Below, in pieces: positions 886-49,394 of a stretch of 64,000 nt of DNA (the first letter of the stretch is position 1; every line of letters starts with the position of its first letter). The notes under the pieces were generated by a model, which was not told the DNA's origin, made no database searches, and saw only the letters and a list, made by a program, of their open reading frames with translations. This stretch comes from Chiloscyllium plagiosum (lineage: Eukaryota): NCBI RefSeq assembly GCF_004010195.1, contig NC_057718.1, positions 91,187,986-91,251,985 of the forward strand, written 5' to 3'. Made by a program: the position numbers and the translations under genes.

Positions 886-1082
886 GAAACTCTTATTTTA
901 TTTTAAAATGTCCAGGAATAATGTCACCGAAAATGAACTATTGACTAATATTTACTTTAATCAAATTGAGACTATTTGAATTGTTTTCAATAATGTATTG
1001 AACTCAGAAGTAAATGTGGTTCAGCATTTTGACCCAATCTTGAAAAAGAAGCACGTAAAATTACATTCTGTGGTTTTCTTAC

Positions 1083-1261
1083 TTCTTTCTGCTTTTCTTC
1101 AAACTTTGCAAATGCTACAAAAAGCTGTTCATCCATGTGGTCTTCTCCATAAAACTCCACTCCTCTTTCATATACTTTCCGTGCATGTCCAATGTAACCA
1201 TGTTTTTCTTCAAACCGGGCATATTTAATCCAGTTCTTCACATCAGGATGAATAAAAACAA
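1083..1261 (-). CDS. CRNKL1: CRNKL1 coding exon 6 (FVFIHPDVKNWIKYARFEEKHGYIGHARKVYERGVEFYGEDHMDEQLFVAFAKFEEKQKE); gene continues beyond the window
   Basis: Overlaps ORF 987..1241. AC acceptor with a U12 branch point, GTAAGA donor, 179 nt. The six exons total 798 nt in frame. Confidence 0.94.
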
Positions 1262-1604
1262 GTGCAGAAGAATTAAGGAGAATAAAACTGTATAAAAGAA
1301 CCCTGCCTACATATGGCTATAAAACAATCATTTTTAGGTTACTACCCAGGTGAAAATGAAGACCTTTTCATACATCTTGAACAATAATGATATTTCGCTG
1401 CTTTCAAGGTAGTGGATAAAGGTTGACCATTATCACTAGCCTGCATTCGCATCAATTCCTCCAGTGGAAAAGCCAATACAGCATGAAATATCTTGACAGT
1501 ATCACAGAGAGCAGGTATTTAGGTTTGGGTGACAAGTAAAAATTCACATTTTACACTCTATGACATTTCTGCATTTTTTAAAGAAACTCTGAACACCAAA
1601 GGCA

Positions 1605-1925
1605 ATGGAAAAGTGTAATATCACTGGAACAGTAATCCAGACCCCAGGCTAATGATCTGGAACATGGAGTCAAATCCCACCGTGTTAGTGACATTTGAAT
1701 TGGTAAAACAAAAATCTTGAACTAAAAGCTAGCCAAATCGTGTTGGTGTAACCCATCTGATTCACTTATTTCCTTTCAGAAAGGAAATCTGTCATACTTA
1801 CTTGGTCAGGCCTAGAGGCTACTCCAGACCCACAGCAATGTGAGTGACTCTTAACTACCTTCTGTGCAATGAGTGACGGGTAAAAAAATGCTGGCCTAAC
1901 CAATGATGTCTACATCCCATTAAAA
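1605..1925 (+). mobile_element. tRNA-derived SINE with L2-like tail
   Basis: B-box-like GGAGTCAAATCCC. The 3' end resembles the LINE tails at ~41950-42000 and ~53060-53130. Confidence 0.5.
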
Positions 1926-2944
1926 ATTAAAATGTAACTATGGGAGCCTACGTCCCACAAGTGTATAAATAGAAAGGGATGTGCAGACTAGGTGAATTAG
2001 CCAGGGGAAATGCCAGGTCACAGGGATAGGGTGGGATGTTCTTTGGAGGGTTAGTATGAACCGAAGAAGCTGAATGGCCTTTTTACATACTGTAGGAATT
2101 TATGATTCTATGAAAAGGTACTGGACTATGGAATTTATCGAAAGGTTTCAGAGTAACAGTGGCATAAAAATAATGCTGCCTGTTTTCTGCAAGGAAATAA
2201 AAGATTACCCTTAATATAATATGGCTACCTTGCTTGGGCTGATGTGGCCAGTGACATCAACTGCTGTGACAGGACAGGTCACAGGAAGTATCTGCACATG
2301 TATTGATGACATCACCACGTTCCACATTTAACTAATGGGCATAGTTTGGTTCTGCATTATAATAGACAAGAAAGGGAAACAAGAGGCAATGAGAACAAGG
2401 CACCATTTGAGAAGATACCAACAAATTTAAACATTTCCATTGCAAAACACTGGCTGAGTAACTCTTCAGGACTGTTCTTACTCTGTTGATGTAATGTTGT
2501 CCCATTTGGAAACACAAATAAGATTCCTGCAGTATTTATTGGGGATTAATACCAGAAAAGTGGGAGAGATTGCAACATTTTCTGTCAACATCATTCAAAA
2601 GTGAAACATCTACTAATAATATTAGCCTACGAAAGTAGTTTGAAACACTAACTGCAACATGATAATGTCTTTTGACACTAATGTTGGGTGCCACCTATAT
2701 TGACAACACGGTGAATTTGTGGAAATCACTGTTTGTCACAAGACAGAACAATATATCCATGACATTTTCAGTTGAAGTTAGAAATGAAAAATTAAAACAG
2801 ATAAAAGTTCAGTTGATCATAAAATGTTACAGATGTCTAGGTAATTGGGTTTTTTTAACACAAATCCCCCACTTAACGGACACTCACAGACCAGCTGCCA
2901 CTGCTGTGAAGTATCAGTATGTTCAATTGCACATTCCACACATA

Positions 2945-4440
2945 GCAGAGTCATAGAGATGTACAGCACGAAAACAGACCCTTCGGTCCAACTCATTCAT
3001 GCCGACCAGATGTCCCAATGCAATCTAGTCTCACCTGCCAAGTCCTTCCTATTCATATTCCCATCCAGATGCCTTTTAAATGTTGCAGTTGTACCAGCCT
3101 CCACCACTTCCTTTGGCAGTTCATTCCACGCACATACCATCCTCTGTGTGAAAAAGTTTCCCCTTAGCTCTCTTTTATCTTTATCTCCCTCTCACCATCA
3201 ACCTATGCCCTCTAGTTCTGGACTCTTCCACCCCAGGGAAGAGACTTTGTCTATTTATCCTATCCATGCCCCTCATGATTTTATAAACCTCTAGAAGGTC
3301 ACCCCTCAACCTCCAACACTCCAGGGAAAACAGCCCCAGCCTATTCAACTTCTCTCTATAGCTCAAATCCTCTAACCCTTGCAACATCCTTGTAAATCTT
3401 TTCTGAACCCAAATGTCACAACATCCTTCCTGACCCATGTCCTGTGCAGCCACAATGTGACCTTCCAACTTCTACACTCAATACTGTGCCCAATAAAGGA
3501 AAGCATACCAAACGCCTTCTTCACTATCCTATCTACCTGCGACTCCACTTTCAAGGACCTATGAACCTGCACTCCAAGGTCTTTTCGTTCAGCAACACAC
3601 CCGAGGACCTTACTATTAAGTGTATAAGTCCTGCTAAGATTTGCTTACCCAAAATGCAGCACCTCGCATTTATCTGAAATAAACTCCATCAAGATCCCGT
3701 TGTAATCTGAGGTAACTTTCTTCGCTGAGAAAGTGAGGACTGCAGATGCTGGAGATCAGAGCTGAAAATGTTCCTAGGATGCTGCCTGACCTGCTGCGCC
3801 TTTCCAGCAACACATTTTCAGCTCTAACTTTCTTCGCTGTCCACGACACCGCCAATTTTGGTGTCATCTGCAAACTTACTAACTGTACCTCTTATGCTCA
3901 TATCCAAATCATTTGTATAAATGGTGGACCCTGCACCGATCCTGGTAGCATTCCACTGGTCACAGGCCTCCAGTCTGAAGATGAACCTTCACCACCACTC
4001 TCTGTCTACTACCTTCAAGCCAGTTCTGTATCTAAATGGCTAGTTCTCCCTGTATTCCATGAGATCTAACCTTGCTAACCAATCTCCCATGGGGAAGCTT
4101 GTCAATCGCCTTATTGAAGTGCATATAGGTCACATCCACCACTCTGCCCTCAATCCTCTTTGTTACTTCTTCACAAAACCTCAATCAAGTTTGTGAGACA
4201 TGATTTTCCACACACAAAGCCATGTTGACTGTCCCTAATCAGTCCTTGCCTTTCCAAATACATGTACATCCTGTCCCTCAGGATTCCCTCCAATAACTTG
4301 CCCACCACCGACGTCAGGCTCACTGGTCTATAATTCCCTGGCTTGTCCTTACCACCTTTCTTAAACAGTGGCACCACATTAGCCAACCCCCAGTCTTCCA
4401 GTACCTCACCTGTGACTATCGATGATACAAATATCTCAGC
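2945..4440 (-). mobile_element. CR1 (HER1-like) LINE 3' fragment
   Basis: ANVVPLFKKG..PGNYRPVSLTS, QHGF..GKSCLTNL and LGLFSLE..RLRGDL motifs, with a CTATGACT tail. Confidence 0.88.
3728..3824 (-). mobile_element. Family A Penelope-type insertion, core deleted, inside CR1
   Basis: 15-bp TSD TAACTTTCTTCGCTG (3713-3727, 3825-3839). Sequence shared with 4607-4909. Confidence 0.7.
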
Positions 4441-4606
4441 ATGTACTGATTTTAGGAAAGAGCAATAGGCAAATGCAAAGCTTCTAAAAAAAAGACTGAA
4501 CACAGAAAAAGCAACAATGAATACTGATGCATTTGAGCTTGTTTTGTGGCAGTTTGAAAAGTTCATTCCTGGCCCAATGCACTATACAATGAGTTTCAAT
4601 ATAAGT

Positions 4607-4909
4607 TGAAAAATGTGATGCTGGAAAAACACAGCAGGCCAGGCAGCATCCAAGGAGCAGGAGAATCGACGTTTTGGGCATAAGCCCTTCTTCAGGAATG
4701 AGGCTGGTGTGCCAAGCGGGCTGAGATAAAAGGTAGGGGGGAGGGAATTTTATCTCAGCCCGCTTGGCACACCAGCTTCATTCCTGAAGAAGGCTTATGC
4801 CCGAAATGTCGATTCTCCTGCTCCTCGGATGCTGCCTGACCTACTGTGTTTTTCCAGCATCACATTTTTCAACTCTGGTCTCCAGCATCTGCAGTCCTCA
4901 CTTTCTCCT
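4607..4909 (+). mobile_element. Fold-back Penelope-type short insertion (family A) with hammerhead-like cores
   Basis: ~125-bp inverted arms (4604-4730 / 4747-4874). 15-bp TSD AGTTTCAATATAAGT (4592-4606, 4910-4924). CTGAAGA...GAAA core on the plus arm, with a decayed copy on the minus arm. Confidence 0.75.
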
Positions 4910-5296
4910 AGTTTCAATATAAGTGCCTGTTGGGAAGATAAGGCACTGAAATTGTAATTTTTGGTGCAACTTCTGAATAACTGAGATCCAGGAAATTCAA
5001 AAGTTTGCTTCTCCATATTGGTGCTTTTGTCTCACTTTCTTTTAGTTCCTTGTTTGCTCAGAAGAGTGCTAAAAAGAAACTTAAATAATCTGAATTGTAA
5101 TTAATTGTAATCACAATTGTAATCAGATATGATTAGACCTTAATCCAAATTTAACTACACTGCTTTTGCATTAGGGCAACGTCAGCGATGCTTATAAATA
5201 AGTTCTTAAAACTTAAGATTGTCTTCGTTATCACGAGCTATCCATGCAAGTAATATTCCCAATGTCTGATGTTATGTACTCATTCCACAAGGATAT

Positions 5297-5463
5297 ACTT
5301 CTCATAAACCAGCCTGGCTCTTTCAATTTCTTTGTATCGGAGTTCAAAGTTGATATAGGAGTGCCATGCTTGTTCATCAGGCTGCCATTCCATCCACCGC
5401 TCAAACACTTGTCGTGCTCCTGCAACATTTCCTAACATCTCCTCCATGTATGTATATTTATAC
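5297..5463 (-). CDS. CRNKL1: CRNKL1 coding exon 5 ([55 protein letters not shown])
   Basis: TAG acceptor, 167 nt, ends at the U12 donor ATATCCTT. Confidence 0.94.
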
Positions 5464-5808
5464 CTAGCAAAAGTAAATACAATATATCATGTGCACATTA
5501 GCATAAGCATACCAATAGATCTACTGGGAACATTAAGTAAATATAGCAATGGGCTTTAAATTATATCCATCATTGCAAAAGCACAACACAGCACTGATTT
5601 TGCAACCCATAGCTCCAAATGGAGTCTCAACACAAATCAGATACTTCCCTAACTTGACAGGGTCTCATCTACAATCTATGTTCATGTGTGGGTTCAGAAT
5701 GGTTGTAGCTGATTTTAGGGCTTAGGTGGGCAACGGTTCTTACTCCTCAAATTACAGAAAACCTAAGAGATCGCAATCCCATTCTATGAAATGGACAGGC
5801 AAATGATA

Positions 5809-6126
5809 AGATTAGATTAGATTCCCTACAGCGTGGAAACAGGCCCTTCGGCCCAACAAGTCCACACCAACCCTCCGAAGAGTAACCCAGCCAGACCCAT
5901 TTCCATTTGACTAATGCACCTAACACTATGGGCAATTTAGCAAGGCCAATTCACCTGACCTATACATCTTTGACTGTGGAAGGAAACCGGAGCACCTGGA
6001 GGAAACCCACGCAGACACAGGGAGAATGTGCAAACTCCACACAGAAAGTCACCCGAGGCTGGAATTGAACCTGGGACCCTGGTGTCGTGAGACAGCACTG
6101 TTAACCGCTGAGCCACCGTGCCGCCC
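5809..6126 (-). mobile_element. HE1-like V-SINE
   Basis: tRNA-like head with A/B boxes, V-domain GGGTTTCCTCC.GGTGCTCCGGTTTCC, CR1-like tail and (AATCT)n. Confidence 0.85.
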
Positions 6127-6684
6127 TTTTAGGTACTTTTACTAAAAAATGGGCTCTCCCTTTGAGAAGGCTGTGACATGAACAGCCAGTAACTAATTAG
6201 TCTAAATGTAACAACAGTCTTAAGAGCAACAGAAATACTTCTTCAGCTTAAATGTGCTATTATACAGTAAACTATCAGAACCAAAACAATTGGTCCTAAC
6301 TATATATTGGAAATGTAATTTGCATCAAATGCAAATATTAAAAGTTTAAAACAAATAAGTGAAATAGAAAGTACTTAATCAATGAAATAGAAAATTCTTA
6401 TTCTTGCTGTCAACATTCATTCAAGTTGAATTTTTGAGGATGTATTAAGAATGATTGCCAAGAAATTGATTAGAAAAACAATTATTCAAATTCAGAAATA
6501 TTTTGGAATTAGAATATTATTAGAATAATGCTTTAATCAGTCTACACATTTTCATGCAGTTTGGTCAACGAAACATTTAAGGTTACAGGAGATCTGATTG
6601 ATGCTAAATCCACACAAAACTCCACAGTATATTATACATAAGTGAAACACAAAACCAAAGATTGTTTACCAGTAGTCAACTTAC

Positions 6685-6843
6685 CAAAACTGGTTGACCC
6701 TGGGCAGTATGGTAATTGCGCGATCCCAGATATTTCGGGCATGGTTAATCTGCCGATTTTTCATCTCCATTTCTGCATACTTCAACCACAGAGTTATATT
6801 TCTGTGATCGACATCTAATGCTCTCTCATAAATGGAACGTGAT
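6685..6843 (-). CDS. CRNKL1: CRNKL1 coding exon 4 ([53 protein letters not shown])
   Basis: AAG acceptor, GTAAGT donor, 159 nt, HAT repeats. Confidence 0.95.
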
Positions 6844-6950
6844 CTTCAGCAATAATAGTGTAAATGTGTGAAAATAAAAGAAACATTTGTTTATTTCTTG
6901 TCAAAAAGATGCGGTCATGTGAATCAATTGCATTTTTTTGAAATAATTAC

Positions 6951-7042
6951 CGTTGTATTTCTTTTAAGCTCTCCTCCCATTGTGCGTATTTGATCCAGTT
7001 GCTAATAACAGTTCGATTTTTCCGTATGTTGTCTTCAAATGT
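6951..7042 (-). CDS. CRNKL1: CRNKL1 coding exon 3 (TFEDNIRKNRTVISNWIKYAQWEESLKEIQR)
   Basis: AG/GT boundaries, 92 nt, start of the HAT repeats, frame consistent. Confidence 0.95.
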
Positions 7043-7168
7043 CTATTATAAAGTGGTAGCAGTAAATAAAAACATATACAACTTACAAATACAGCAAAGG
7101 CAACAATCCTGATTTATTACATTATTTTGGTAAACAAAGAAAAATTGTAACTGTTACAAAGCACTTAC

Positions 7169-7321
7169 TTTTCTTTTCCTTAACTTGTAGTCATTCAATT
7201 CCTCCTCATCGGTAATCTTTTGTGTAGGAGGTGGTGGAAGGAGTTCAAGTTCCCTCTCTTTCGCTTCTCTCAGGAGCTGTTCAGCAGTGATTTGCAATTC
7301 GGCAGGTGCTTTATTTTTCAC
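7169..7321 (-). CDS. CRNKL1: CRNKL1 coding exon 2 ([51 protein letters not shown])
   Basis: TAG acceptor, GTAAGT donor, 153 nt, in frame with exon 1, hallmark Crn/Clf1 sequence. Confidence 0.96.
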
Positions 7322-8489
7322 CTATAAATGAAAACCAACTGAGTCAATAATGGTTCTTTTGACCAATAGCTAAACCTGGTGGTGCATGTAAAGATTAAAT
7401 AAAATCTTTTAGCTGTAGCTCTGTTTAAGAAACTTTATGTTGAAATCCATGATGGGGCTTTATGATCTCTTTTGGGGTCTCCAATATAAAGCACATCTTT
7501 GAACATATGCAGAACTGTTGAAGTACTGGCTACATTCAAAAATTGAGTGAATGTCAAGCAAACTATACATTGAAAACTAAATATAGCGATAATTTGGAAA
7601 ATATAGAATATAACATTCTGTTGTGCAACATGGTACATACGGGTTGAAGGTGAGAGGAGAAATTCTAAATATATAAATACGCTGGTCTCAGGTACTGAGC
7701 AGATTTTGTTTCCCCTGTAAATACACCACTTCAGTTTTTATGTTGTACTTTTCCTGCACATTTCCTTTGTGTTCTTGAGAAGAGGAAGTAGGAACAGTGA
7801 AAGACTTCATTGTGTACACACAATATTAAAATAAACTCTATTGCTCCCAAGACCAAATTTTCTGATTAGACATATGGTGACAATGTCTCTTGCATTCTTT
7901 GTATGCAATTTTCATAGTACTACTAATCAATATTGCTTCCCTGCTCCTGCAATACGAACAAACTAATGACAGTTGTTACTACCTGTTCTCCCTGGTAAAC
8001 TAACACTTTATCACCATACGAAACATATTTGTGCCATTTTGCAGGAATTCTCATCCAAATCTCACTACTTCACTTCCTGCTCCTTGAAAGATACTTTTGA
8101 CCAAGCTTCTAAACATCTGCCTTCCTGACATCTGATTCATCCCAGTCTTCAGTCAATTCAATCAATGTAATATCAAGAAATGGCTGAAGGCACTGGAAAC
8201 TACAAAGGTTATGGCCCTAACAACATCTCAGCAGCAGTTATGAAGACCTGTGCTCTAGAACTAGCTGCACCCTATATCAAGTTGTTCCAATATAGCTACA
8301 ACACTCAAAATGTGGAAAATTGCCCAGGTACGTCCTGCACACAAAAAGCAGGAGAAATCCAACATGGAGTTGTTTGTTGGTTTGCCGAGCCAGAGATTAA
8401 TATGTTGGTGGGTGCTTTCTAACTTGGACCGTTTAATGATAATGAAGGTAGTTCATAGACAGTTCATAGTGTTAAATGCAGAACTGAAG

Positions 8490-9480
8490 TCTATCATTCC
8501 TCAGCACCTGATTGGAAAGCTGAGACTGCTGGCCTAAATACCCCACTTTGTAACTGGATCCTGGACTTCCTGACTGGAAAACCACAGCCAGTCCAGATTG
8601 GGAACAGCATCTCCAACACCATCACACTGAGCACAGGGACCCCCAGGGCTGTGTGCTCAGTCCACTGCTGTTCACCCTGCTAACACACGACTGTGTGGCA
8701 ATGCACAGGTCGAATCACATTGTCAAGTTCGTTGTTGACATGACTGTATTTGGTCTCATCAGCAGGAACGACGAGTCAGCATATAGAGAAGAGGTGCAAC
8801 GGCTAACAGACTGGTGCAAAGCCAACAACCTGCCTTTGAACTTGGACAAAACAAGAGATGGTTGTTGACTTCAGGAGGGCACAGAGTGACCACTCTCCAC
8901 TGGACATTGATGGCTCCCCAGTGGAGATCATGAAGAGCACCAAATTTTTTAGCATCCACCTGGCGGAGAATCTCACCTGGTTCCTCAACATCAGCCCATA
9001 GCCAGAAAGCCCAGTAGCATGTCTACTTTCTGCGTAAACTGTGGAAAGCCCACCTCGCAGACTCCCCATCCTCACTACATTCTACATTCAGTGTTAGTTT
9101 ACCAGGGAGGACAGGTAGTAACAACTGTCATTAACTTGTTCGTATTGCAGGAGCAGGGAAGCAATATTGATTAGTACTACTATGAAAATTGCATACAAAG
9201 AATGCCACATCATTGCTTGGTTTGGGAATTGCACCATCTCAGATCATGAGACCCTACAATGGATAGTGAGGACATCAGGGTCCCTCTCCCCTCCAGTACA
9301 AACATTTACACCACATGCTGCATCCGAAAGGCTAACACAGCATTGAGGAAGACCCCACACACTCCTCACTGAAATTCTTCTCCCTCCTGCCATCTGGCAG
9401 AAGATACTGGAGCATTAGGTCTCTCACGGCCAGATTGTGCAGCAGTTTCTTCCTCCAAGCCATCAGGCTCCTTAACACAA
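8490..9480 (+). mobile_element. Rex1/Babar-like LINE RT 3' fragment
   Basis: [18 protein letters not shown]...IVKF..D motifs (ORF 8653..8868). Confidence 0.7.
9090..9205 (-). repeat. Inverted copy of 7892-8007 inserted into the Rex/Babar LINE
   Basis: 116-bp near-identical reverse complement. Confidence 0.88.
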
Positions 9481-12509: not shown

Positions 12510-12765
12510 ACAATAAAACAAAGAATTGCGGAGGCTGGAGATCTGAACAAAAACAGAAATTGCTGGACTGTTAGCTCAACCGGTCTGTTAGTATCTCTGT
12601 AAAGAGAAAGCAACGTTTCGACTTCAGAGTCCGAACGAAGGGTCGCTGGACCCGAAGTTAACTCTGATTTTTCTCCACCGATGCTGCCAGACCTGCTGAG
12701 CTTTTCCAGCAACTTCTGTTTTTGTTTCGGATTTAGAGCATTCGCAGTTCTTTCAGTTTTTATTT
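12510..12765. mobile_element. Family B fold-back Penelope-type insertion next to the CFAP61 promoter (other copies ~47985-48095, ~62800-62940, ~15270-15380)
   Basis: Inverted arms AAAAACAGAAATTGCTGGA.../...TCCAGCAACTTCTGTTTTT, with a degenerate GGGTC-loop-GACCC GAA core. Confidence 0.6.
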
Positions 12766-13167
12766 AGAGAGAAAGCGGTAATACTTATTGAGTGTTCATT
12801 TTGAAATAGCCAAAAGTTACACAATACCAGGTTTATTCAAAATCACAAGCTTTTGGGGTGCTGCTCCTTTGTCAGATGAAGTAATCAATCAGATCATAGC
12901 TCACCCCTTCACTTACTATTCAGCTGTTGACACTTTATTCACACCGTTTGAAACTTTTGATCAATTGCAAAAACGTTATTCGGCCTGTCGACATTCAACT
13001 CATATTATTTGTACTTTTGACACTCTTAATTGCCTGGAACTATCTTGCCATTATCTCTCGACCTATAAATTCTATGCCTGTGTACTTCCTTCCACTTCAC
13101 TTAACAATACACTTCATTTGACAAAGGAGCAACACTCTAAAACTTGTGATTTCAAATAAACCTGTTG

Positions 13168-13702
13168 AGCTGTACAGGACTTTGGTTAGGCCACAGTTGG
13201 AGTACTGTGTGCAGTTCTGGTCGCCTCACTTTAGGAAAGATGTGGAAGCTTTGGAGAGGGTGCAGAGAAGATTTACCAGGATGTTGCCTGGAATGGAGAG
13301 GAAGTCGTACGAGGATAGGTTGAGAGTTCTCGGCCTTTTCTTGTTGGAACGGCGAAGGATGAGGGGTGACTTGATAGAGGTTTATAAGATGATCAGAGGA
13401 ATAGATAGAGTAGACAGTCAGAAACTTTTTCCCTGGGTACAACAGAGTGTTACAAGGGGACATAAATTTAAGGTGAAGGGTGGAAGGTATAGGGGAGATG
13501 TCAGGGGTGGGATCTTTACCCAGAGAGTGTTGGGGCATGGAATGCGCTGCCCGTGGGAGTGGTGGAGTCGGAATCATTGGCGACCTTTAAGCGGCATTTG
13601 TATAGGTACATGGATGGGTACTTAATCTAGGTTAGAAGTTCGGCACAACATCGTGGGCCGAAGGGCCTGTTCTGTGCTGTATTGTTCTATGTTCTATGTT
13701 CT
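13168..13702 (+). mobile_element. 5'-truncated CR1 LINE
   Basis: LYRTLVRPQLEYCVQFWSP... (ORF 13146..13625) with a (TTCTATG)n tail. Confidence 0.9.
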
Positions 13703-14805
13703 AACTATAACTTGGTGTCGTGTGACTTCTGACTTTGTCCTCCCCAGTGCAACACTGGCAGCTCCACATTATTGTGAAATACTCAAGACAAATCTGACCA
13801 TTATGCGTTATTTGCAGCTTTTACTGTTTATTCTTTCTAAGAATGAATAACTGTCCTTCTGTCTCTACGGATGTGCCTGACCTGCAGGTTGCTTCAGTTT
13901 TATTCAGTATATTTTAAGGGTATATACCAACAAACTTGGAGAAATGTGTTATTTATAGCCTATAGAATTATTGTGTGCAATATGTAATTTAATCCATGCT
14001 TTATCTCTATTTCTCCAATCCTTTTTCCTAATTGTGGTTAGATACAATTCAGCTTTGAGGCAAAATCTGTGAGATGTGGTGGTGTGACTGGCTATTAAGT
14101 TTTGGAATTAGCAGAAGGCATAACATCAGAGTTGATTCACAAGTCACATATGATTCCTCATAATTCAGAAGAAGTTATGTTGTGAAGAAGACCCATGTTA
14201 TCATTGTTTTTCCTCATTCATAGAGCAGCCCTCTAGAAAGTACCTATAACCATTATGGATCACCAGCATCTCAAGGGCTGAAATGTTTCAAAGAGAAGGC
14301 CCTCAGTGATCACACAAGATAACTAGGAATTCACAAAAGTTGTTGGTGTCAACCACATTCTGAGAATAAATAAAAATGACCTAAGTAACATTGACAATTT
14401 ATATTTATATCTTTTTAACTTCATTTCAGTGACGATTTTGAAGTGTCAGTACATAGTTCACAGGACATCAAACAGGATAGGAGAGATAATTAGCAAGATG
14501 TTTTTGATAACCTTATCTATTATCTCTGCCTCTAATGATATAGTAATATCATTTTAATTTTAAATTGTAATGCCTAGTCATTTATTTAGCTCCATAGATC
14601 TGTAGTGGTTATTGTTGCTCAAAATTTTGTTTGACAATGTTTGCACAAGATTATCATATCCTTTCAATTTTTGCCATTGATACCTGTGACTGAAAATATT
14701 GTTCTGTCTAATTGCAATTTTTATGACCCTGAGTAAATATTTTCATTACCTCATGATATGCTATAATTTCCATTCCTTATCTGTACTCTCTTTTCCAGAG
14801 CAACA

Positions 14806-19768: not shown

Positions 19769-19989
19769 GTAGGTTGTGTGTCAGGTAGGTTCTTAACTGT
19801 GGGTAAATTATTCATTCCACTATGGATACACTCAGGCACTGTGCAAGAAAATCTTTGCAAAGCTGTAGAATCATCAGTTACTTGCAAAGGTGTTGATCAA
19901 ATCTACCTCGGACACATGTTGTCATGCTAGGGACTCAGGGAGAATATTACAAAAATAACTTTGAGACGAAGGGCAAGTGGACAAATGAT

Positions 19990-20080
19990 CTGTGCAATGT
20001 CATTTTATCCTTTCTAAGAATTGTTAAATATCATTGCTTACTGTTAAATATCTTAGAAAGGATAAAATGACATTGCACAG
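19990..20080. repeat. Perfect 30-bp inverted repeat abutting the LTR
   Basis: 19990-20019 is the exact reverse complement of 20051-20080. Confidence 0.9.
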
Positions 20081-23000
20081 TGTTTGAACAGCCAGACCCC
20101 CAAACTATTTTAAGGAGGTAGCCTAGACCCAAATGTTTTCCTATTTTAAAGGCTATTGTAAGGTGCCATTTTCCAGATGCAATGCGACTGGTCAAACTAC
20201 TTGATGTTAAGCAAAACACCATTTATTCAAATATTATAGTTAAGGTGCAACAAAAAAGAGCAACTTAGAATAACGTAATTCTATTGGAAAATTTAACAGA
20301 ATAGATACAGTAGTATTACTAATTAACTGTTGCAATATAGTAATATCCCACAAACACATTATTTGGGCAAAAAGGCAAATCCAGAAATCAGATTTTTTCA
20401 AAAGTAACATCTACAGTAGGAAGAGAAACCCAGACTTCTAGCTGTAACTAAGAGAAGGGGAAAAAGATAGCTTTTACTTCTTCAAAACTCCAGCAGCTTC
20501 TACTGAACCCAAAAGCTAAAAAAACCTAGAAATCCTGGTCAGTGAGAGCTGCCAAACCCATCCAAACTGCTTCTATTGTTCGAACATTTTAAAAAACCCT
20601 GTGGCCTCATAAGCTGCTTACGTTACCAAAAACAGTTCATCACCTCTCATTCAATCTCTCTCTTCAAAGAAACCAGGACAAGATACACATCTTAAAGCCA
20701 CAGCATTGTAACACCACATTCCCTTAAAAGAAATGAACATTCAATATACAAAGGTGGCTTCATTTTTAAAGACCTTAATCTTATGCTATTAGTACACTAC
20801 AATACATATACATTACATTGACTCTATGCATGCAAATATTCACTACTACAAGCTATTTCAGTCTGTTTATTCCTGCCACCAAATGATTCCGTCTTCCTCC
20901 ATCAAAGTTGTGACAACGCATCAGTAATTATCCACGTGTCCTGCCACGTGTATAATTTTCAAATTGAATAACTGCAAGAATAGGTCCATTTAACCAGTCT
21001 GGAACTTTTTCTTTAAACTGCTTCAAGAGTTTTCAGGCGTAATGATCAATATATACAATTGTCTCAGGCACAGTTACTGATAATACAAATGTTGAAACAT
21101 TGTAGCGCCAACACCAAATGCTGTAATGCTGAAGGCCCCCTTCTCAATCATGGAATATTTTCCTTGATGATTATTTAGTTTTCTGAAAATACCCAATAGG
21201 TCTTTCTATCTTCTCATCATCTTCTTGCAAGAGTATAGCACCAACACCCACATCACATGGTAAATAGCCATCTTGAATGACTTTACATAATTAGGTGTGA
21301 CTAACACTAGGACAGTGGTTAACACAGCATTCAGCCTGTCAAATGCCTTCTGACAATTCTCTGTCCACTGAAATTTTCTGTACTTCTTCAGTAAATCAGT
21401 CAGTGGAGCACACTTCTAAAATTCAGTACTAACCTCCAATAAAAAACATCAATCCGAGAAATCATAGATAGCACCTTCTTCATTGATGGTTAAGGAAACT
21501 TCTCAGTATTATTTGTCTTCACGTCCTGTGGGGCCATCTGCCAATATCCAGTAAAATGGCCCAGAAATGTGACTTGGGGTTTTGCCAACTTACTCTTAGC
21601 CAGATTGATCACCAAGTCTGCTTCCCAAAGTCTATGGAACAATTCTGAGAGATGCTGCAAATGTTCTTTCCACGTGTGACTAAAAATCACCATATTGTTG
21701 AAGTGTACCACACAATTGGATAAACCAGAAATGACTTTATTAGTTAGGCTTTGAAATGATTTAGATTTAGATTACCTACAGTGTGGAAACAGGCCCTTCG
21801 GCCCAACCAGTCCACACTGATTCTCCGAAGAGTAGTCCACTCAGAACTATTTCCCTCCTAACGCTAACACTGAGCCACCGTGTCGCCCCAAATGTGGCTG
21901 GTGCATTTTTCATGCCAAATGGCATGACTTTAAATTGGTATAGTCCATTCGGTGTCTAGGAAGCCAAAATTATCTTTGCTCTTTTGGATAAAGATACCCG
22001 CCAGTATCATCTGAACAAGTCCAACTTATAATTATAGGTTGCTTGTCCTACCTTCTCAATACAGTCTTCCAAACATGCAATAGAATATGAATCAGACATT
22101 TTAACTGCATTGACTTTATAATAGTCCACACATAATTGTTGGGTACCATCTGGAATTAGCACTATTACTATGGGTGAGCTCCAGTCACAGCAACTCACTT
22201 CTATTATGTTGTCTTTGAGCATGTGTTCAATCTCTTTTTGAACCTGTGTCAAGTTTAGAGGGTTAAGAGTATAAGGATGTTGTTTAACTGGAACAGCACT
22301 TCCTATATCTACACCTTGCATGATTAGTTTAGTACTTCTCAACTTATTCCCATATATCTCCCCATGAGATTGTAGTGACCTTTCAGGTCATTTAAATTTT
22401 CCTCTGGAAGCTAACTCAGTAATTTATCCCAATTTTTGACAACTTCCTCATTGTCCAATATAATTTGGGGGAATGTCCAATTCAGAATCATCTGAATTTG
22501 TTTCTTCACTCTGTAACCAGTAACACATTCTTCTTTAGCTTTCCTTCGTTATCAAACTCTTTTCAGCAATTCACACGATGCATTCTGTGAGATTTCTTTC
22601 TATCTGGCACTTTTATCAAATAATTCACCTCACTCAAATTCGATTTGATTAGGCCCACTAAACCTTACTTTTAACGGTTCATCTACCACTGGAAGTAACA
22701 CTGACACTTTATCCTCACTAGCAAAATTGCAAATTTTTGATTTCTAGTCTACTTCCTGTTTCATCACATGCTGTGCTACTTTTAAATGCTATCTAGCCAA
22801 CTCACCCGCTCTATTTAATCTTTCCCTAAAATTTGACACATTGTCCAAATATGTGACTCTAAACTCTGACTCACCAATTTCTCCTTAATTAGTTTCAGTG
22901 GTCCTCTTACCTCATGCCAAAAACTAATTCAAATGGCCTGAATTTAGTAGATTCATTAGTTGCATTCCTCATTGCAAATAGGGTAAATAAAATTCCTTTA

Positions 23001-26996: not shown

Positions 26997-27311
26997 GTAA
27001 TGGATCTTCTGATGGATACCTTCTTTCTAGGAATTGCCTTCTCCCAATGACTTGCTAAAAGATATTAAGATTTAAATTTACTCACATTCTGAACCAACAG
27101 CAAGATATGGGAAATAACAAGCTAATATTTTATGATATGTTTCACATTTTCAAACTATCACAATGTGAGGAACCTTCAGTAAATCTTTTGTGATGCATAC
27201 TATTGGGTAGGCACTAAACAATCTATTTTTGCTCAGCAAAATCTACATAACTAATCATTCTGTTATGCCGGTGTTGTAGAGTGATAAATTCTGGCTAGAA
27301 TCTTGGGTGAA

Positions 27312-27505
27312 CTCGGTGGAAGTGGGTACTGCAGACACAAGAGATTAGAGTCAAGATTAGAGTGGTGCTGGAAAAGCACAGCAGGTCAGGCAGCATCCGA
27401 GGAGCAGAAAAATCAACGTTTCATCATCAGGGCTTCTGCCTGAAACGTCGTTTTTCCTGCTCCTCAGATGCTGCCTGATCTGCTGTGCTTTTCCAGCACC
27501 ACTCT
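27312..27505 (-). mobile_element. Family A fold-back insertion
   Basis: Inverted arms and a 13-bp TSD AATCTTGGGTGAA (27299-27311, 27506-27518). Confidence 0.7.
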
Positions 27506-27814
27506 AATCTTGGGTGAAATCCCCTGCCTTTCAAATAATTCCATGGGATATTTTATTTCCAGGTGAGCAAGAAAATTAGGCCTCAGTGTAATTAATCCTC
27601 CATAAAACAACACGTCTGGCGATGTAGCACACACTTTGTACTGGACAGTAGTGTTAGCCTAGATTATGGGTGGAGTTAAATGTCGATGAAGAGGGTCTCT
27701 CTACCTAGTTGGACAACCGGCAGAATCCCTACATTGCCTGAATTGGGTAAGATTGCCCGATCTTAGTGACTATTGGATGGCCTTCTTCAGAACTTAGAAA
27801 CCATAGAGCAAAAA

Positions 27815-30530
27815 CCCTACCATTCTCCTCCTCCATAATACAATAAGCTTCAATCTGCAATTTGAGAGGGAGAGGGTACAATCAGAAATGACAATATTTC
27901 TGTTGAAGTTCATTCCAACAAGGAAGAAAGATCCTAAGAGGAGGCATGGGTGGCCGTGGTTGATAAGGGAAGTTAAGAAAAATATAAAGTTAAAAGAGAA
28001 AAAGTATAACATAGCAAAGATAAGTGGGAAAACGGAGGACTGGGAAGCTTTTTAAAGAACAACAGAGGATTACTAAGAACGAAATACGCAGAGGAAAAAT
28101 AAGGTACGAAGGTAAACTGGCCAAAAATATAAAGGAGGATAGTAAAAGCTTTTTTAGGTATGTGCAAGGCAAAAAACTGGACCCTTGAAGATAGAAACAG
28201 GGGAATATATTACAGGGAACAAAGAAATGGCAGAAGAATTGAATTGGTACTTCAGATCTGTGTTCACTGGGGAAGGCACAAGCAATCTCCCTGAGGTAAC
28301 AGTGGCTGAAGGACCTGAACTTAAGGGAATTTATATTTGCCAGGAATTGGTGTTGGAGAGACTGTTAGGTCTGAAGGTTGATAAGTCCCCGGGGCCTGAT
28401 GGTCTACATCCCAGGGTACTGAAGGAGGTGGCTCGAGAAATCGTGGATGCATTTTCCAGAGTTCAATAGATTCGGGATCAGTTCCTGCGGATTGGAGGGT
28501 GGCAAATGTTGTACCACCTTTTAAGAAAGGTGGGAGAGAGAAAGCAGGAAATTATAGACCAGTTAGTCTAACTTCAGTGGTGGGAAAGATGCTGGAGTCT
28601 ATTATAAAGGATGAAATTACAACNNNNNNNNNNNNNNNNNNNNNNNNNNNNNNNNNNNNNNNNNNNNNNNNNNNNNNNNNNNNNNNNNNNNNNNNNNNNN
28701 NNNNNNNNNNNNNNNNNNNNNNNNNNNNNNNNNNNNNNNNNNNNNNNNNNNNNNNNNNNNNNNNNNNNNNNNNNNNNNNNNNNNNNNNNNNNNNNNNNNN
28801 NNNNNNNNNNNNNNNNNNNNNNNNNNNNNNNNNNNNNNNNNNNNNNNNNNNNNNNNNNNNNNNNNNNNNNNNNNNNNNNNNNNNNNNNNNNNNNNNNNNN
28901 NNNNNNNNNNNNNNNNNNNNNNNNNNNNNNNNNNNNNNNNNNNNNNNNNNNNNNNNNNNNNNNNNNNNNNNNNNNNNNNNNNNNNNNNNNNNNNNNNNNN
29001 NNNNNNNNNNNNNNNNNNNNNNNNNNNNNNNNNNNNNNNNNNNNNNNNNNNNNNNNNNNNNNNNNNNNNNNNNNNNNNNNNNNNNNNNNNNNNNNNNNNN
29101 NNNNNNNNNNNNNNNNNNNNNNNNNNNNNNNNNNNNNNNNNNNNNNNNNNNNNNNNNNNNNNNNNNNNNNNNNNNNNNNNNNNNNNNNNNNNNNNNNNNN
29201 NNNNNNNNNNNNNNNNNNNNNNNNNNNNNNNNNNNNNNNNNNNNNNNNNNNNNNNNNNNNNNNNNNNNNNNNNNNNNNNNNNNNNNNNNNNNNNNNNNNN
29301 NNNNNNNNNNNNNNNNNNNNNNNNNNNNNNNNNNNNNNNNNNNNNNNNNNNNNNNNNNNNNNNNNNNNNNNNNNNNNNNNNNNNNNNNNNNNNNNNNNNN
29401 NNNNNNNNNNNNNNNNNNNNNNNNNNNNNNNNNNNNNNNNNNNNNNNNNNNNNNNNNNNNNNNNNNNNAGCTGCCAGAGGATGTGGTGGAGGCTGGTACA
29501 ATTACAACATTTAAGAGGCATTTGGATGGGTATATGAATAGGAAGGGTTTGGAGGGATATGGGCCGAGTGCTGGCAGGTGGGACTAGATTGGGTTGGGAT
29601 ATCTGGTCGGCATGGACGGGTTGGACCGAGGGGTCTGTTTCCATGCTGTACATCGCTATGACTCTATGACCTGGACAGGTTAGGTGAGTGGTCAGATGCA
29701 TGGCAGATGCAGTTTAGTGTGGATAAATGTATGGTTATCCACTTTGGTGGCAAGAAAGAAGGCAGATTACTACCTAAATAGAATCAATTTAGGTAAAGGG
29801 GCAGTACAAAGAGATCTGGGTGTTCTTGTACACCAGTCAATGAAGGTAAGCATGCAGGTACAGCAGGTAGTGAAGAAGGCTAATAGCATGCTGGCCTTCA
29901 TAACAAGAGGGATTGAGTATAGAAGCAAAGAGGTTCTTCTGCAGCTGTACAGGGCCCTGGTGAGACCACACCTGGAGTATTGTGTGCAGCTCTGGTCTCC
30001 AAATTTGAGGAATGACATTCTGGCTATTGAGGGAGTGCAGCGTAGGTTCACAAGGTGAATTCCTAGAATTGCGGGACGACCTTATGCTGAAAGACTGGAG
30101 CGACTGGGCTTGTATACCCTTGAGTTTAGAAGTCTGAGAGGGGATCTGATTGAGACATTTAAGATTATTAAAGGATTGGGCACTCTGGAGGTAGGAAACA
30201 TGTTTCTGCTGATGGGTGAGTGCCGAACCAGAGGACACAGCTTAAGAATACGGGGTAGACCTTTAAGACAGAGATGAGGAGAAACGTCTTCACCCAGAGG
30301 GTGCTGGCTGTGTGGAATGCTCTGTCCCAGAGGGCAGTGGAGGCCCAGTCTCTGGATTCATTTAAGAAAGAGTTGGATAGAGCTCTCAAGGATAGTGGAA
30401 TCAAGGGTTATGGAGATAAGACAGGAACAGGATGCTGATTAAGGATGATCAGCCATGATCATATTGAATGGTGGTGCAGGCTCGAAGGGCAGAATGGCCT
30501 ACTCCTGCACCTATTGTCTACTGTCTATTG
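27815..30530 (+). mobile_element. CR1 LINE(s) spanning an assembly gap, with a nested CR1 3' end
   Basis: KSPGPDGLHPRVLKE, GNYRPVSLTS and LVRPHLEYCVQ motifs. Confidence 0.88.
28624..29468. other. Assembly gap (N run)
   Basis: Run of Ns. Confidence 1.
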
Positions 30531-32683: not shown

Positions 32684-33084
32684 CTGATTCTGCGATCACT
32701 GAAAGGGCTGCACCGGTATCGACCTCCATTAGAACCAGGTGACCATTTAACTAGATGGTTCTTTTGATTGGTTGTGATTTGAGGGTCTGAAGCAATTTGA
32801 CTGTTCCAAACTGGATGTACATGGACTTTCCTTGGTGTGCATTCTCCTGCGTACCGGCTTATGAGTTCTCTTATTCAGTTTAGGAATTCTAGTCCAGGAT
32901 TCTCTTAAGGTAAACTTGCAAGTTGAGTCAGTAGTTAGTAGGACTCCTTTGCTGTCTCAAGACTACATACCAGCAGCAATGAAATGGACTGGCAGCCCGG
33001 ACCCTGAAGAAAATTTTTATTATTTGGTTGAGGCTTGGCTTTGTTTTGGGGTTCAAAGTTTGTGAGAAAATTTGTAACTCGGGT

Positions 33085-33280
33085 GTTCGTTGTTGTGGTT
33101 CTGTTCGCTGAGCTGGGAATTTGTGTTGCAGACGTTTTGTCCCCTGTCTAGGTGACATCCTCAGTGCTTGGGAGCCTCCTGTGAAGCGCTTCTGTGATGT
33201 TTCCTCCAGCATTTATAGTGGTTTGTCTCTGCCACTTCCAGTTGTCAGTTCCAGCTGTCCGCTGCAGTGGCCAGTATATT
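33085..33280 (-). mobile_element. Penelope-like terminal fragment (family D) with hammerhead-like core
   Basis: Minus strand 33164-33131 reads CTGAGGA T GTCACC TAGACA GGGGAC AAAA CGTC. Confidence 0.5.
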
Positions 33281-33384
33281 GTTTTGGGGTTTTGCTGTGG
33301 GCTGACCTAGAGTTGCTCTGTTCAGGATACATCCTAAGTGAGGCTATGGAATTGCCTTCACTCAAGTGGTGTTCCCCATGGTCA

Positions 33385-35211: not shown

Positions 35212-36600
35212 GACACTCCTCTTTATCTGTCAGCCAGGGCTCCCTGATTGGACCAGATTAACAGCCCCCATCAGGGAACTCCAGTTTGATGAGGTCCATA
35301 TTCTAATGAGGCTGACCACAGTACAATCAGTACACCATGCTTTCAGCTGGCATGGCTCTAAGTTTTGAATTTGTTTCCCTACCTCATTCCATTTTTGTGC
35401 TTCATTTATGCCATGTCTTACAATCTCTTTAATCATCTGCCTTAACACTTTTATTCAGTTCAGTGTTTAATTTTGGTTTATCATATTCTTGTAAAATGTC
35501 TTTGGCTCTTTTATTGCCTTGATCATGCTATATAACTTCAAGTTGTTGAACTTAGAGCAATAATCACAAAATGCAGGTCTATCAGATAGGTGTCATTTAT
35601 CACTAAAATTACTAACCTTCTTAGAAGGTTTATTATCAGCATACTGATCCTAATTCCATTCCATTAATTTCATCCAGTCTCATCTGTCTGCAGTCATCTG
35701 TCTGCAGTCTGTGATATTGTCAAATCACAATTCTTTTTTGCTTTGCCTCAGACTGTATGTTTCTAAGAAATTTTGATGTGAAAAAGTAGATTAAGCATGT
35801 TGCTGAGCCCTATTTTAGCTCTGTGTAAGTCAGTGTATTTTGAGTGAGCTAAAATGAGGACTTATGATTCTGTAAAATAAAAGAAACTGGTCCAGCTTTT
35901 TGTACAATGTGCCAAGATTTTGAGGGATAGCATACCTTCTTCACTGCCTATCAGATATCACTGAGCTGGACTATGATATTGTCAAACTCAAATCCCTGGC
36001 TTCATAGGTTTAATTTAAACAGATCTATCTTCTAATATCTTTATTTATGGAGTGACCTGAATAATTTAACCTGAATAATTGTGTCTTTTCTTAAATTGAT
36101 CAGATTGCCTTCTTGAGTCTGGGAAGATTTCTATAATGTTGAAGAAACTGTTTTCTCCTTTTTGACCTTCATTCTGCTTTATTCAAAGCTTAATGACATT
36201 CCTGTGATATTTCCGAACAGATAAAACCTCATCCTTCCAGTATCTCTTCCTTCAATTTTTTCTGGTAAATCATTTGCACACCCAACAGTATTCTGCTTGC
36301 TATTACTTGTTATAATTTTTTTTGTCATTGCCTGATATCTTTCTCTGCTATGAAAATTGGTTGAGGTCAAACTATTGAATGTTTTCAAGAAGGAGTTACC
36401 TTTAGCTCGAAGAACTATATCTATGGGGAGAAAATGGAAACAGAGTACTGAGTTGGATAATCAGCTATGAACCTATTGAATGGTGGAGCAGGCTCAAAGA
36501 GCTGAATGACCTACTCATGTCACAATCTTCAGTGTTTCTTTGCCTCTTCCATCCTTTCTAACAGCACAAATGCAAAATCACAGTCATGACAGAATTTTCT

Positions 36601-36737
36601 AGCCTCATTCCTGATGAAGGGCTTTCGCCTGAAACATTGATTCTCCTGCTCTTTGGATGCTGCCTGATCTGCTGTGCTTTTCCAGCACCATACTGTCAAC
36701 TCTAATCTCCAGCATCTACAGTCCCCACTATCGCCTC
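36601..36737 (+). mobile_element. Family A single-arm insertion with hammerhead-like core
   Basis: CTGATGA A GGGC TTTC GCCT GAAA CATT at 36611-36638. 9-bp TSD GAATTTTCT. Confidence 0.65.
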
Positions 36738-37799
36738 GAATTTTCTCATGTTTGCCCAAAGTGATGGAGTATTAATATTGTTCCATCGTGGACAATGTCC
36801 ATTTGTTTGCTTGGTACTTGCAAATGCTGAACTCTGGTTAGTCACTGAAGTCTGTTTCAATTTGCTAAAGTACCCTGTTAGTTTTTTTTAAACAACATAT
36901 CTTCATTCTTTTCTGCCACATACATTCTGAAGATGTTTTTAAATTTTAAACATACAATACACCTTAGTGCAAGTATATTTTATGAAAGTTTTCACTAAGA
37001 CTATGTGATAAAAGTTTGACGTACATATATATTTCTGAAGCCATTACCCAATTTGATTGCGTAGTGATTGTGGAAAACATGTTTCAATGCATTTAGGTTT
37101 CTTGAAATAGCCACAGGAAAAAATGAAGATTGGGCAGTAGATTTAAGGAAGTTTACATGAACTGAATTTTCAGATTATTAATTAGACTACAATGATGTGA
37201 AGAAGAATGTTTCTACATGGATATTAGGATCCTTCTTCTTTTGCCGTTCTGTAGACACAGGAAATTATGTGGACACAGGGAAAGGGAAAATTTGAGGAGA
37301 CATGGTGATTTGTAGTTTGTGATTCCAAGAATAGAACGCACACTTTTATGTAGGTAAATTTGTAAGAAGCATATTGTTAACATTTCTATTTAAAATATTC
37401 TGTGTTGTGCTTACTTTGGGTTCTTATTGTGATTATTCGGATAGTCATCTGCAGAGGGCGCTAAATACTTCCCTAAAGAATGTTTCACGCAGGATTTGAA
37501 TTCACATTAACCAATTAGTTCAATTAAAGTCAAATTCATGATGTTGAACATGGGTTTGGGGAAAATGCTGAAGACAATTTATTTTTGATTTTATTTTTTA
37601 TTCTGTAAGCCTGACTTTGTATGAGCCGAATCCATTTTTGACAATGCAGGGCCAAATTCGCAAACTAGCACACTGTGTACATATTGATATTTATCTTCAG
37701 ATTCATTATGCATTTTTTAAACAAACATGTACTGTGGCCTTCAGTATATAAAAATTAATGTATACAAACATTCTTTAGAATTCACAAGTTACTGAACAG

Positions 37800-47800: not shown

Positions 47801-49394
47801 TGTAGCTAATATCAAGATTTGCCTTGAGTAAAAGCAAAGTATTGTGGATGCTAGAAAGCTGAAAAAAATTTACCTCTGGGGGCAGGAAATGATTGCCCTA
47901 ACCTGGGTGAAGGAAGCATCAACAACCCTCAATTTTTCATGGTTTCTGAACATCTGCTGTGAATGGAGACAGGGCTGAAAGAGTCTGGAGTTCTGAAGAA
48001 TGGTCACGAGACCCAAAATGTTAACTCTGATTTCTGTCCATAGATGCTGCCAGACCAACTGAATTTTCCCAGCAATTTCTGTTTTTGTTTCTGAAAGGGT
48101 CTGAATCTGATTTAAAAATATCATAGCATCTATTACTGTGGTTACTGTTTTATTGCACTTCCCGCTGATGGAAAAAGGTTTAGGAGAGTCAAAGGCCTTC
48201 AAACTGAGGTGAGAGAGCTCCTCATTTCATGGATGTGGACTTGGAGATCCTCCTTGAGGCAGTGAGGAGAGAAGGAAGGACCTGTAACCAAAAGATGTCG
48301 GGAAAAGGTTAGTCTCCCGAATCAAGACCTTTGGATGGAATTGCTGGGCCTGTGAGCAGATAGCATGGTTAACAGAAATGACCCAGTGTAGAAGGAAGTT
48401 CATTGATCTTATTCACTCTGGAAAGGTGAGTTACATGCTAAACTTTCAGGCCAGGTTTCTGTGTGTTCACCTTCCAGCAGTTGCTCCATCTGAAGAGCAA
48501 GAGGACACATGCTTCTTGACCATGAGAGTAATGTGCGCCCAAGGCACTGACCGGGAATGAATCGGAACCATTGCACTGTTGAGTACCTGCCATCACTGAC
48601 TCATACAACTTATAATGAATAGGAGTATTTGGCCATGGAAGCCAGCACTTCCTTGTTGGCACTCATTCTTTTGTCCTTGGAGGAGCAACATAATACTAGA
48701 GAGTAGTTTCAAACTGGAGGAGACCCTTCATACCTGCACTTCATCACCACAGTGGAAACGTGAGCCAGGGACATCGTCTAGGCTTGTTGTGGTGATTAGA
48801 TAGTACAGTTCATTCATGACAGGGGTGCATTGTACTTCACCATTTTCTAATGGATGTCAAAGCACAGCTGCATCGGGAAGCCTCAGCACTGTAGAGTCTT
48901 CTCCTCTCCAAATGTGCTTCTCAGAATTTCCTCAAACTGGTGTCCATCGAAGTCATGTGTGCCACTATGGCTCAGAACTTTAAATACATCAGCTACCCTC
49001 ATGTCCTCATCTGGATGTTATTGCTGTGAAATCACAGATATGATCTGCATGGAAACCTGATGTGAAAGGACCATCCTATGTTGCTCATTGGCCTTGGTGG
49101 AAGAAGTTTTTACATTTCAAATATGCTGAGCCACATGTCATGGCATTCTGACCTCTACCTCCGGGCATGATGCATCCATTGTTCCTCTCTCAGCTATGGA
49201 GGGTGAGCAGCTGTGGCTCTCTTGTATCTTCACTACATCATGAGGGAACCTATGGTTGGCAGCTCCAGAATACGGATCAGCTCCATATTTGCTAGATGCT
49301 GATGCTGGGCCTTGCCTTGTGGATGCATTCAATTTGTGTAATAGCCCTGTGTGCAATGGATAGAAGGATAGCCATAACTACTATGAGCCCTGGA

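Follow-up and report, generated by a model that had tools for sequence, protein, structure and literature searches.

Minimal hammerhead ribozymes (min-HHRs) in the pseudo-LTRs (pLTRs) of metazoan Penelope-like elements (PLEs) were defined by Cervera and De la Pena in 2014, and the sections of that report available to us describe no cleavage as monomers and weak cleavage as dimers (PMC4209133). These sections list fish Xena, Poseidon and Neptune elements, coelacanth and Xenopus as carriers; they do not name sharks and describe neither a pile-up of copy 5′ ends nor fusions to U6. The accessible part of Craig et al. (2021) calls it unclear what the hammerhead does in endonuclease-encoding (EN+) PLEs (PMC8557442). 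For Poseidon_Ac (PAc) of Anolis, the available text of Frangieh et al. (2024) reports an internal start of reverse transcription in vitro, an uncleaved template and protein-assisted cleavage; RNA-seq ends were not seen at the cut site, and cleavage played no part in vitro (PMC11167929). Non-LTR retrozymes are presented, in the excerpts at hand, as non-coding, pLTR-related units with a type I hammerhead that form tandem arrays, from which monomers or circles are cut; they are reported in one chondrichthyan, which a survey of retrozymes and PLEs already includes (PMC7229834; bioRxiv 10.64898/2026.07.22.740005). Finally, U6/LINE-1 chimeras carry full-length U6 that ends in a T run and is joined to a retroelement 3′ part, and RtcB ligates U6 to a 5′-OH, not to a triphosphate end, according to the accessible portion of Moldovan et al. 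(2019) (PMC6789731).

Here we analyzed a 64,000-nt stretch of the Chiloscyllium plagiosum genome, referred to as the window, together with other loci of the genome. We consider it probable that minimal type I hammerheads reside in the 3′ pLTR of at least five PLE families and that the short copies arose by run-off of reverse transcription over the front 100 to 140 nt. Judging from the available sections of PMC4209133, the hammerhead class is already published, and the new part is the footprints of a start site and a cut site, not the intronic location. Our literature search, which fell short of most subscription papers and of Repbase/Dfam, found nothing on PLE hammerheads of sharks or on U6-PLE chimeras; these shark families may already be listed in bioRxiv 10.64898/2026.07.22.740005, of which a part was accessible.

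A fold-back insertion in a CRNKL1 intron

Positions 4592-4924 of the window constitute a single insertion, from one target-site duplication (TSD) to the other, with identical 15-bp duplications at 4592-4606 and 4910-4924. The insertion falls within an intron of CRNKL1, which is encoded on the minus strand (1053-7318) with coding exons near 7318, 7000, 6845-6684, 5462-5283 and approximately 1250. Two arms of a putative Neptune-type family A pLTR lie head to head in it. The inverted arm (4604-4731, minus strand, sense in CRNKL1) is devoid of the 3′ tail, and its hammerhead at 4695-4668 (−) carries G12A. The direct arm (4780-4909, plus strand, antisense in CRNKL1) comprises the 5′ strand of stem I, the hammerhead at 4784-4810 (+), the pLTR body and a tail of about 35 nt; its hammerhead has a 1-nt deletion in stem II in addition to C15.2U. 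A TATA-like box at 4748-4755 (+), a candidate promoter element, precedes stem I by about 30 nt, and long copies of families A, B1, B2 and C have such a box at the equivalent position. When positions 4592-4924 were folded as RNA, the two arms paired over about 130 bp into a single hairpin (−251.5 kcal/mol).

Two further features were observed here. In the family A pLTR (for example at 4797-4900), a hydrophobic, cysteine-rich frame begins with an ATG in loop II and continues across pLTR and tail; it may be the true N terminus of the ORF. Immediately 5′ of the first coding exon identified for CRNKL1, 116-nt inverted repeats (7892-8007 and 9090-9205; 97% complementary) surround 1.08 kb with an RT-like fragment.

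The hammerhead core, its stems and its decay

The original prediction had placed hammerhead-like cores of four repeat families at eleven sites of the window, and a core was found at every one of them. The supposed family B turned out to be two families, B1 (56785) and B2 (12635/47993); a sixth family, D2, occurs in other loci. We compared the consensuses of eight families or subfamilies. All eight keep C3-A9, G12-A15.1, U16.1 and H17, and thereby the C3-A9 and G12-A14 segments that had been singled out in advance; this conservation is partly circular in that the collecting scan demanded the core, and the counts of copies anchored downstream with no core requirement agree with it. The G10.1-C11.1 pair and the single base between positions 9 and 10.1 are likewise present in 8/8 consensuses. 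Stem II, for which covariation had been foreseen, shows pairing in 31 of 32 cells; stem I, previously unmentioned, covaries as well (28 of 32), with C-G, U-A and A-U swaps and three or more pair types at most stem positions. Permutation gave mean values of 19.4 for stem II and 14.4 for stem I, and the observed values were reached in 0 of 20,000 permutations, which is not a true probability given that the sequences are related. In place of helix III, a palindrome lies between A15.1 and U16.1; the expected swap of ACGT and AGCT was seen in seven consensuses, and the B1 majority is ACAT, which we read as CpG decay. In subfamily A1, stem I amounts to 2 bp plus a U-U.

The proposal that many deviations reflect CpG decay was also borne out. 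The most altered core base is G12, which belongs to a CpG: 34 of 125 copies differ there and 30 at C11.1, compared with 3 to 6 at A13, A14 and A9. Of 182 downstream-anchored copies, 50 are intact, whereas 75 differ in the core and 57 are interrupted within the ribozyme.

A covariance-model match was not obtained: the Rfam search of the window gave no hammerhead at E values up to 10 and returned only hairpin-driven miRNA matches and a U6 fragment at 39738, which was rejected as spurious. A relaxed motif scan of the window yielded 13 matches versus 1 to 7 in five shuffles, which is weak evidence alone. The strict scan was applied to a blind sample of 969,963 bases, drawn from large contigs as 100 stretches of 10 kb, the first 60 of which (584 kb) were also shuffled. 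These 60 contained 45 motifs with core and stem II, whereas 20 shuffles gave 0 to 4 each (mean, 1.95); full motifs numbered 34 versus one over all 20 shuffles combined.

The motifs resemble the published min-HHRs in their core, the extra base between positions 9 and 10.1, the G10.1-C11.1 pair, the short stem I and the palindromic 15.1-16.1 region without loop 3, and also in the many families per genome that are represented mostly by single copies from truncated PLEs; they differ in stem II, which has 4 to 6 bp here versus 7 to 8 bp in the available sections of PMC4209133. By the features tested, the motifs of the window and of the families thus qualify as predicted minimal type I hammerheads of the PLE class.

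Relation to Penelope-like elements

The motifs had been taken for separate short non-coding mobile families linked to PLEs. The link was corroborated and the separateness was not: a search of the species' own genome showed that longer copies of every family have PLE endonuclease or RT sequence directly upstream in the same orientation. Upstream of family A lie an RT thumb, a CX4CxxC linker and a GIY-YIG domain, and coding sequence ends about 190 nt before the ribozyme. The same layout in decayed form precedes B1 (L071, L081, L082 and L088) and C (L033 and L055); B2 is preceded by an endonuclease C terminus only, in one copy (L139). The CX2-5CxxC linker between RT and EN is intact in A and decayed or frameshifted in B1 and C, and the coding regions of B1, B2 and C were found in part only. 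In Pfam searches, L180 matched RVT_1 (E value of 2e-6) and GIY-YIG (4e-4), each slightly under the cut-off, and L203 matched RVT_1 with an E value of 2e-11; YIGET/YIGQT and YIDD/YVDD motifs are present in PLE copies. Carpet sharks have the nearest relatives of the PLE protein (83% and 70% identity), and two RT probes gave first-look candidate counts of 70,221 and 8,665. The 5′ pLTR of family A was reached in 0 of 20 long loci and 0 of 17 upstream loci of this assembly, which has gaps.

Family D carries a Poseidon-type ORF without the linker zinc finger, the start of which lies within the ribozyme (translation of L203): the start codon is formed at A9-U-G10.1, and the stop codon lies in loop II of the next ribozyme. 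Complete pLTR-ORF-pLTR units measure 2503 nt (L203) and 2502 nt (L199) between ribozymes, L202 is also tandem, and the AC-rich tail has two end points about 40 nt apart. As far as its description is available, PAc shares with family D the ORF start at ribozyme stem II, the AC-rich tail and the tandem pLTR-ORF-pLTR arrangement (PMC11167929). Families A, B and C resemble the Neptune/Nematis-type EN+ PLEs, for which the accessible part of PMC8557442 gives a C-terminal GIY-YIG domain, a CX2-5CxxC linker, 5′ truncation, an inverted 5′ copy and an optional tail of 30 to 40 bp. By domain layout, families A, B and C probably belong to the Neptune/Nematis type, here called Neptune-type, and D is probably a Poseidon-type PLE. 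Because the longer copies continue into PLE coding sequence, the short copies are best read as 3′ pLTRs of 5′-shortened PLEs, often with an inverted arm and a TSD. Head-to-head pairs account for 39 of the 309 Neptune-type copies of the blind sample, and a one-sided tail is also present.

In addition, L203:3005-5535 is a near-complete Poseidon unit with three in-frame stops, and start and stop codons of consecutive ORFs in L203 overlap one ribozyme in different frames. A young Neptune subfamily (L217-L234; 98 to 100% identity over 127 nt) has a proline-rich stretch before the RT. At L309:7550 and 7776 (−), two intact family D hammerheads lie 226 nt apart in direct orientation and are a candidate for a natural dimer.

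Density in the window and the genome

The 100 blind stretches contained 88 motifs with core and stem II and 70 full motifs (72/Mb; bootstrap, 54 to 94), and stem I has at least 2 bp in 59, at least 3 bp in 30 and at least 4 bp in 8 of these 70. Extrapolated to the 3.56-Gb genome, this corresponds to approximately 250,000 full motifs, of which about 30,000 have a stem I of at least 4 bp, and to about 1.2 million pLTR fragments. The available excerpts give approximately 4,000 minimal motifs for coelacanth and 9,000 for Xenopus (PMC4209133) and 126,247 canonical hammerheads for axolotl (PMC7229834), with descriptors that differ from ours. The original prediction had seen a dense set of such units in the CRNKL1 and CFAP61 pre-mRNAs. 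The window is nevertheless average in pLTR density, with 24 fragments in 62.7 kb (383/Mb) versus 200 fragments in 584 kb of blind stretches (342/Mb).

Where the copies begin

We mapped the 5′ ends of copies relative to C3 with shortened references and dropped copies that start more than 25 nt past the cut. Of 309 Neptune-type ends in the 100 blind stretches, 87 fall at −10 to −1, just 12 at −40 to −11, 72 at 0 to +24 and 96 further upstream than −40. The pile-up at −10 to −1 is common to A, B1, B2 and C, its edge is steep (8.7 ends per nt versus 0.4 per nt upstream), and in 22 of the 39 head-to-head pairs the longer arm begins there. Upstream of the edge, the flanks are unique DNA, a TSD or the inverted arm, which rules out missing reference UTRs as its cause; a 3′ splice site was also rejected, as the AG is found only in B1 and B2 and is absent in A and C. 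D2 counts were dropped from the comparison of TATA box and edge because a SINE in the reference tail polluted them.

Long copies of A, B1, B2 and C have the TATA-like box about 30 nt before the edge in four unrelated upstream sequences. In A and B2, stem I contains an initiator-like site. Taken together, the box, this site and the edge of 5′ ends make stem I the likely transcript start. TATA and Inr elements are present in a rotifer pLTR (PMC3846280), whereas Drosophila Penelope has an internal promoter without TATA, which counts against a TATA-driven start (PMC2377424). In an RNA-seq run of the same or a related species the edge recurs, with 92 reads having loose ends before −4. Its reads match both strands of families A and D and come from mixed copies, so that they are uninformative on the window introns; this one run, a single-cell poly(A) library and a weak test, showed no pile-up of RNA ends at the cut site or at the presumed start.

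The pile-up could also stem from stalling of the RT, fold-back or microhomology at the ribozyme structure, and some observations favor this. No significant excess of a cap-derived G ahead of the 5′ ends was seen in the blind stretches (20/68 versus 33/126; P = 0.38) or over all loci (62/179; P = 0.051). The 72 ends at 0 to +24 lie within the ribozyme, and B2 has a small peak at +17. The Poseidon families have a TATA box, yet none of their 14 blind copies begins at −10 to −1 or near −22, where the box, 30 nt upstream, would place the start. The edge, however, is abrupt and lies distal to the structure, which the RT has already traversed at that point; family A shows the peak despite a stem I of only 2 bp; and TATA-like boxes lie at one distance in four unrelated upstream sequences. 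We therefore regard stalling as an unlikely source of the pile-up and favor a transcript start at stem I. Apart from this peak, family A has a second cluster of about 35 copies that begin at −78 to −93 from C3 (blind sample L235-L334), which may be real or else an alignment effect or an artifact of a C-rich tract.

At the cut site itself there is no bulk peak of 5′ ends (5 of 60 nearby ends at −2 to +1; P = 0.94), and only two of the 309 ordinary copies begin at N1.1. The absence of this peak suggests that uncleaved RNA would be the main template, as reported for PAc in the accessible part of PMC11167929. It also bears on the notion that the short units are self-standing non-coding retroelements, similar to retrozymes or SINEs, amplified via circular RNAs cut by the ribozyme, as cut-to-cut monomers should start at N1.1. 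The very many 100- to 140-nt units with TSDs of their own would fit this notion, as would the direct pair of intact family D ribozymes in L309 and a 2026 preprint that, in its available part, derives vertebrate retrozymes from pLTRs (bioRxiv 10.64898/2026.07.22.740005). Against it stand, besides the missing ends at N1.1, an unbroken size series up to RT-EN copies, the lack of tandem arrays in the window and the lack of the upstream box in short copies. The notion is largely refuted, and we hold it to be very improbable. In contrast to the arrays of non-LTR retrozymes, the copies here are solo or head to head and start upstream of the cut; with no tandem arrays in the window and one direct 226-nt pair elsewhere, these families are not non-LTR retrozymes. 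Run-off copies of longer PLEs remain the favored reading.

U6 fusions at the predicted cut site

We surveyed U6 copies in 40 stretches that cover 43 of the best 48 U6 matches; five top matches from a single cluster were omitted. In 34 of the 40 stretches, the 3′ end of U6 could be read. All four fusions of U6 to a family A pLTR (L342, C7:109202440; L346, C31:9507200; L349, C10:45249680; L355, C10:28341540) carry full-length U6 and join exactly at N1.1 without microhomology, at four loci and in different subfamily sequences. None joins at the −10 to −1 peak, and L346 is a fold-back with the U6 join on both arms. In L336 and L367, read by eye, U6 is joined inside the endonuclease region, and the join of the D-like fusion L344 is not clean; U6 joins to PLE sequence are therefore not all at the cut site.

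Hammerhead cleavage leaves a 5′-OH at N1.1. Because RtcB needs such an end and the four fusions join precisely there, they provide indirect evidence that the family A ribozyme may cut in the germ line in vivo. The L1 partners of U6 are variably truncated by an unknown nuclease, as described in the available part of PMC6789731, whereas the four joins here share a single bond, at which the ribozyme is predicted to cut. The fusions also set Neptune family A apart from PAc in pointing to some cleavage in vivo.

Other partners of U6 were seen in the survey. In L356:69-142, U6 runs straight into a complete copy of tRNA-Lys(CTT), and about one-third of the U6 copies read join the head of one abundant SINE-like repeat (L337-L341, L343, L347, L348, L351, L359, L360, L363 and L369). 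This repeat is presumably tRNA derived; ARAGORN found no tRNA in three of its copies joined to U6.

A proposed life cycle

We propose the following course of events. Transcription would start at stem I, so that the ribozyme would form the first 30 to 35 nt of the RNA. Reverse transcription would begin at the tail, 100 to 130 nt downstream, as it does with PAc in vitro, and run off the 5′ end of a template that would mainly be uncleaved RNA; occasional fold-back during this step would produce the inverted arm, and run-off copies, being without the upstream box, would likely be dead ends. With A15.1 and U16.1 two bases apart, the ribozyme would need a partner via the 4-bp palindrome, or help from a protein, and would likely cut a minority of transcripts. 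Its 5′-OH product would occasionally be ligated to U6 and then retroposed. After insertion, the CpGs at C11.1-G12 and in ACGU would decay, and inverted pairs would bury the ribozyme in a long hairpin.

We lean, by a narrow measure, toward a broader reading in which the genome preserves the PLE life cycle in fossil form. Hundreds of thousands of copies would place the start at the ribozyme's first base, as strong-stop-like cDNAs of a capped leader, the U6 chimeras would reveal a germ-line cut at N17, the ribozyme would act as a self-decapping switch at the mRNA 5′ end, and with about 250,000 motif-intact copies few described genomes would be as rich in hammerheads. The ends of the copies and the U6 joins provide exact candidate positions for transcript start and in vivo cleavage.

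Other copies in the window and the host genes

Coding exons of both host genes were identified, in agreement with the predicted location of the copies in introns of CRNKL1 (−) and CFAP61 (+) and in both orientations. The CFAP61 exons (14848-57693, plus strand) encode its N-terminal domain (PF16092) at 14848, 18194, 54627 and 57526; copies from 27 kb to 57 kb sit between these exons, and those past 57.7 kb lie presumably in later CFAP61 introns. TSDs of 8 to 15 bp flank 7 of the 11 window sites checked.

Family A is represented by a head-to-head remnant without ribozyme (3713-3839; 15-bp TSD), by inverted pairs truncated within the ribozyme at 27299-27518 (13-bp TSD) and 50282-50519 (15-bp TSD), and by a solo pLTR at 36592-36746 (+) with a 9-bp TSD, the core of which (36611-36638) is intact with a broken palindrome (ACAT) and a stem I of 2 bp. 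B1 forms an inverted pair at 56693-56927 (15-bp TSD) with A9G and U16.1G in the plus-strand core at 56785. B2 occurs as a pair at 12515-12760 with a degenerate hammerhead near 12630-12660, as a solo pLTR at 47975-48097 (+) with G12A and a changed G10.1 in the core at 47993, and as a decayed pLTR at 62800-62930 (−). Fragments of family C lie within 12816-13769, at 12816-12875 (−), 13119-13166 (+) and 13706-13769 (+). Its inverted pair at 58104-58320 has an A10.1 mismatch at 58188 (−) and G12A at 58202 (+), and in the pair at 60188-60430 both cores, 60277 (−) and 60285 (+), are intact and pair with each other in the RNA fold; a solo family C pLTR at 61625-61740 (+) has an intact core, a G10.1-U11.1 pair and the palindrome AGTT. 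The 5′-truncated end of a putative Poseidon-type family D element at 33041-33291 (−), antisense in CFAP61 with a 13-bp TSD, consists of the last ORF codons, the hammerhead at 33164-33131 with G12A, and the AC-rich tail.

Most of the window copies are thus damaged, the two hammerheads of the CRNKL1 insertion included. Only 3 of the 11 cited copies (36611, 60285 and 61625) have an undamaged catalytic core in the sense orientation of the host gene; all three have G10.1-U11.1, two have a damaged palindrome, and 60285 is half of a hairpin. That intronic copies cut CRNKL1 or CFAP61 pre-mRNA and have been retained as regulators, as with the hammerheads conserved in amniote introns, is the least credible explanation, as these three CFAP61 sense copies with a kept core are set against an average density, a CRNKL1 sense copy without G12, CpG decay at 11.1 in every candidate, the damage and burial just listed, a predicted stem I pairing of 0 in a 550-nt context and, in the accessible sections of PMC4209133, the failure of minimal hammerheads to cut as monomers. 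Because of CpG decay and hairpin burial by inverted pairs, the intronic hammerhead copies in CRNKL1 and CFAP61 are likely inert. Fast decay of the CpG that necessarily includes the general base G12, together with masking by inverted arms, would explain why one motif per 14 kb is tolerated in shark introns.

Two other structures of the window were noted. Positions 19983-20083 form a near-perfect, AT-rich hairpin of about 100 nt with weak miRNA-family matches only, and a young LINE-like repeat is present as an inverted pair at 1-688 and 27833-28385, 27 kb apart and 85 to 97% complementary.
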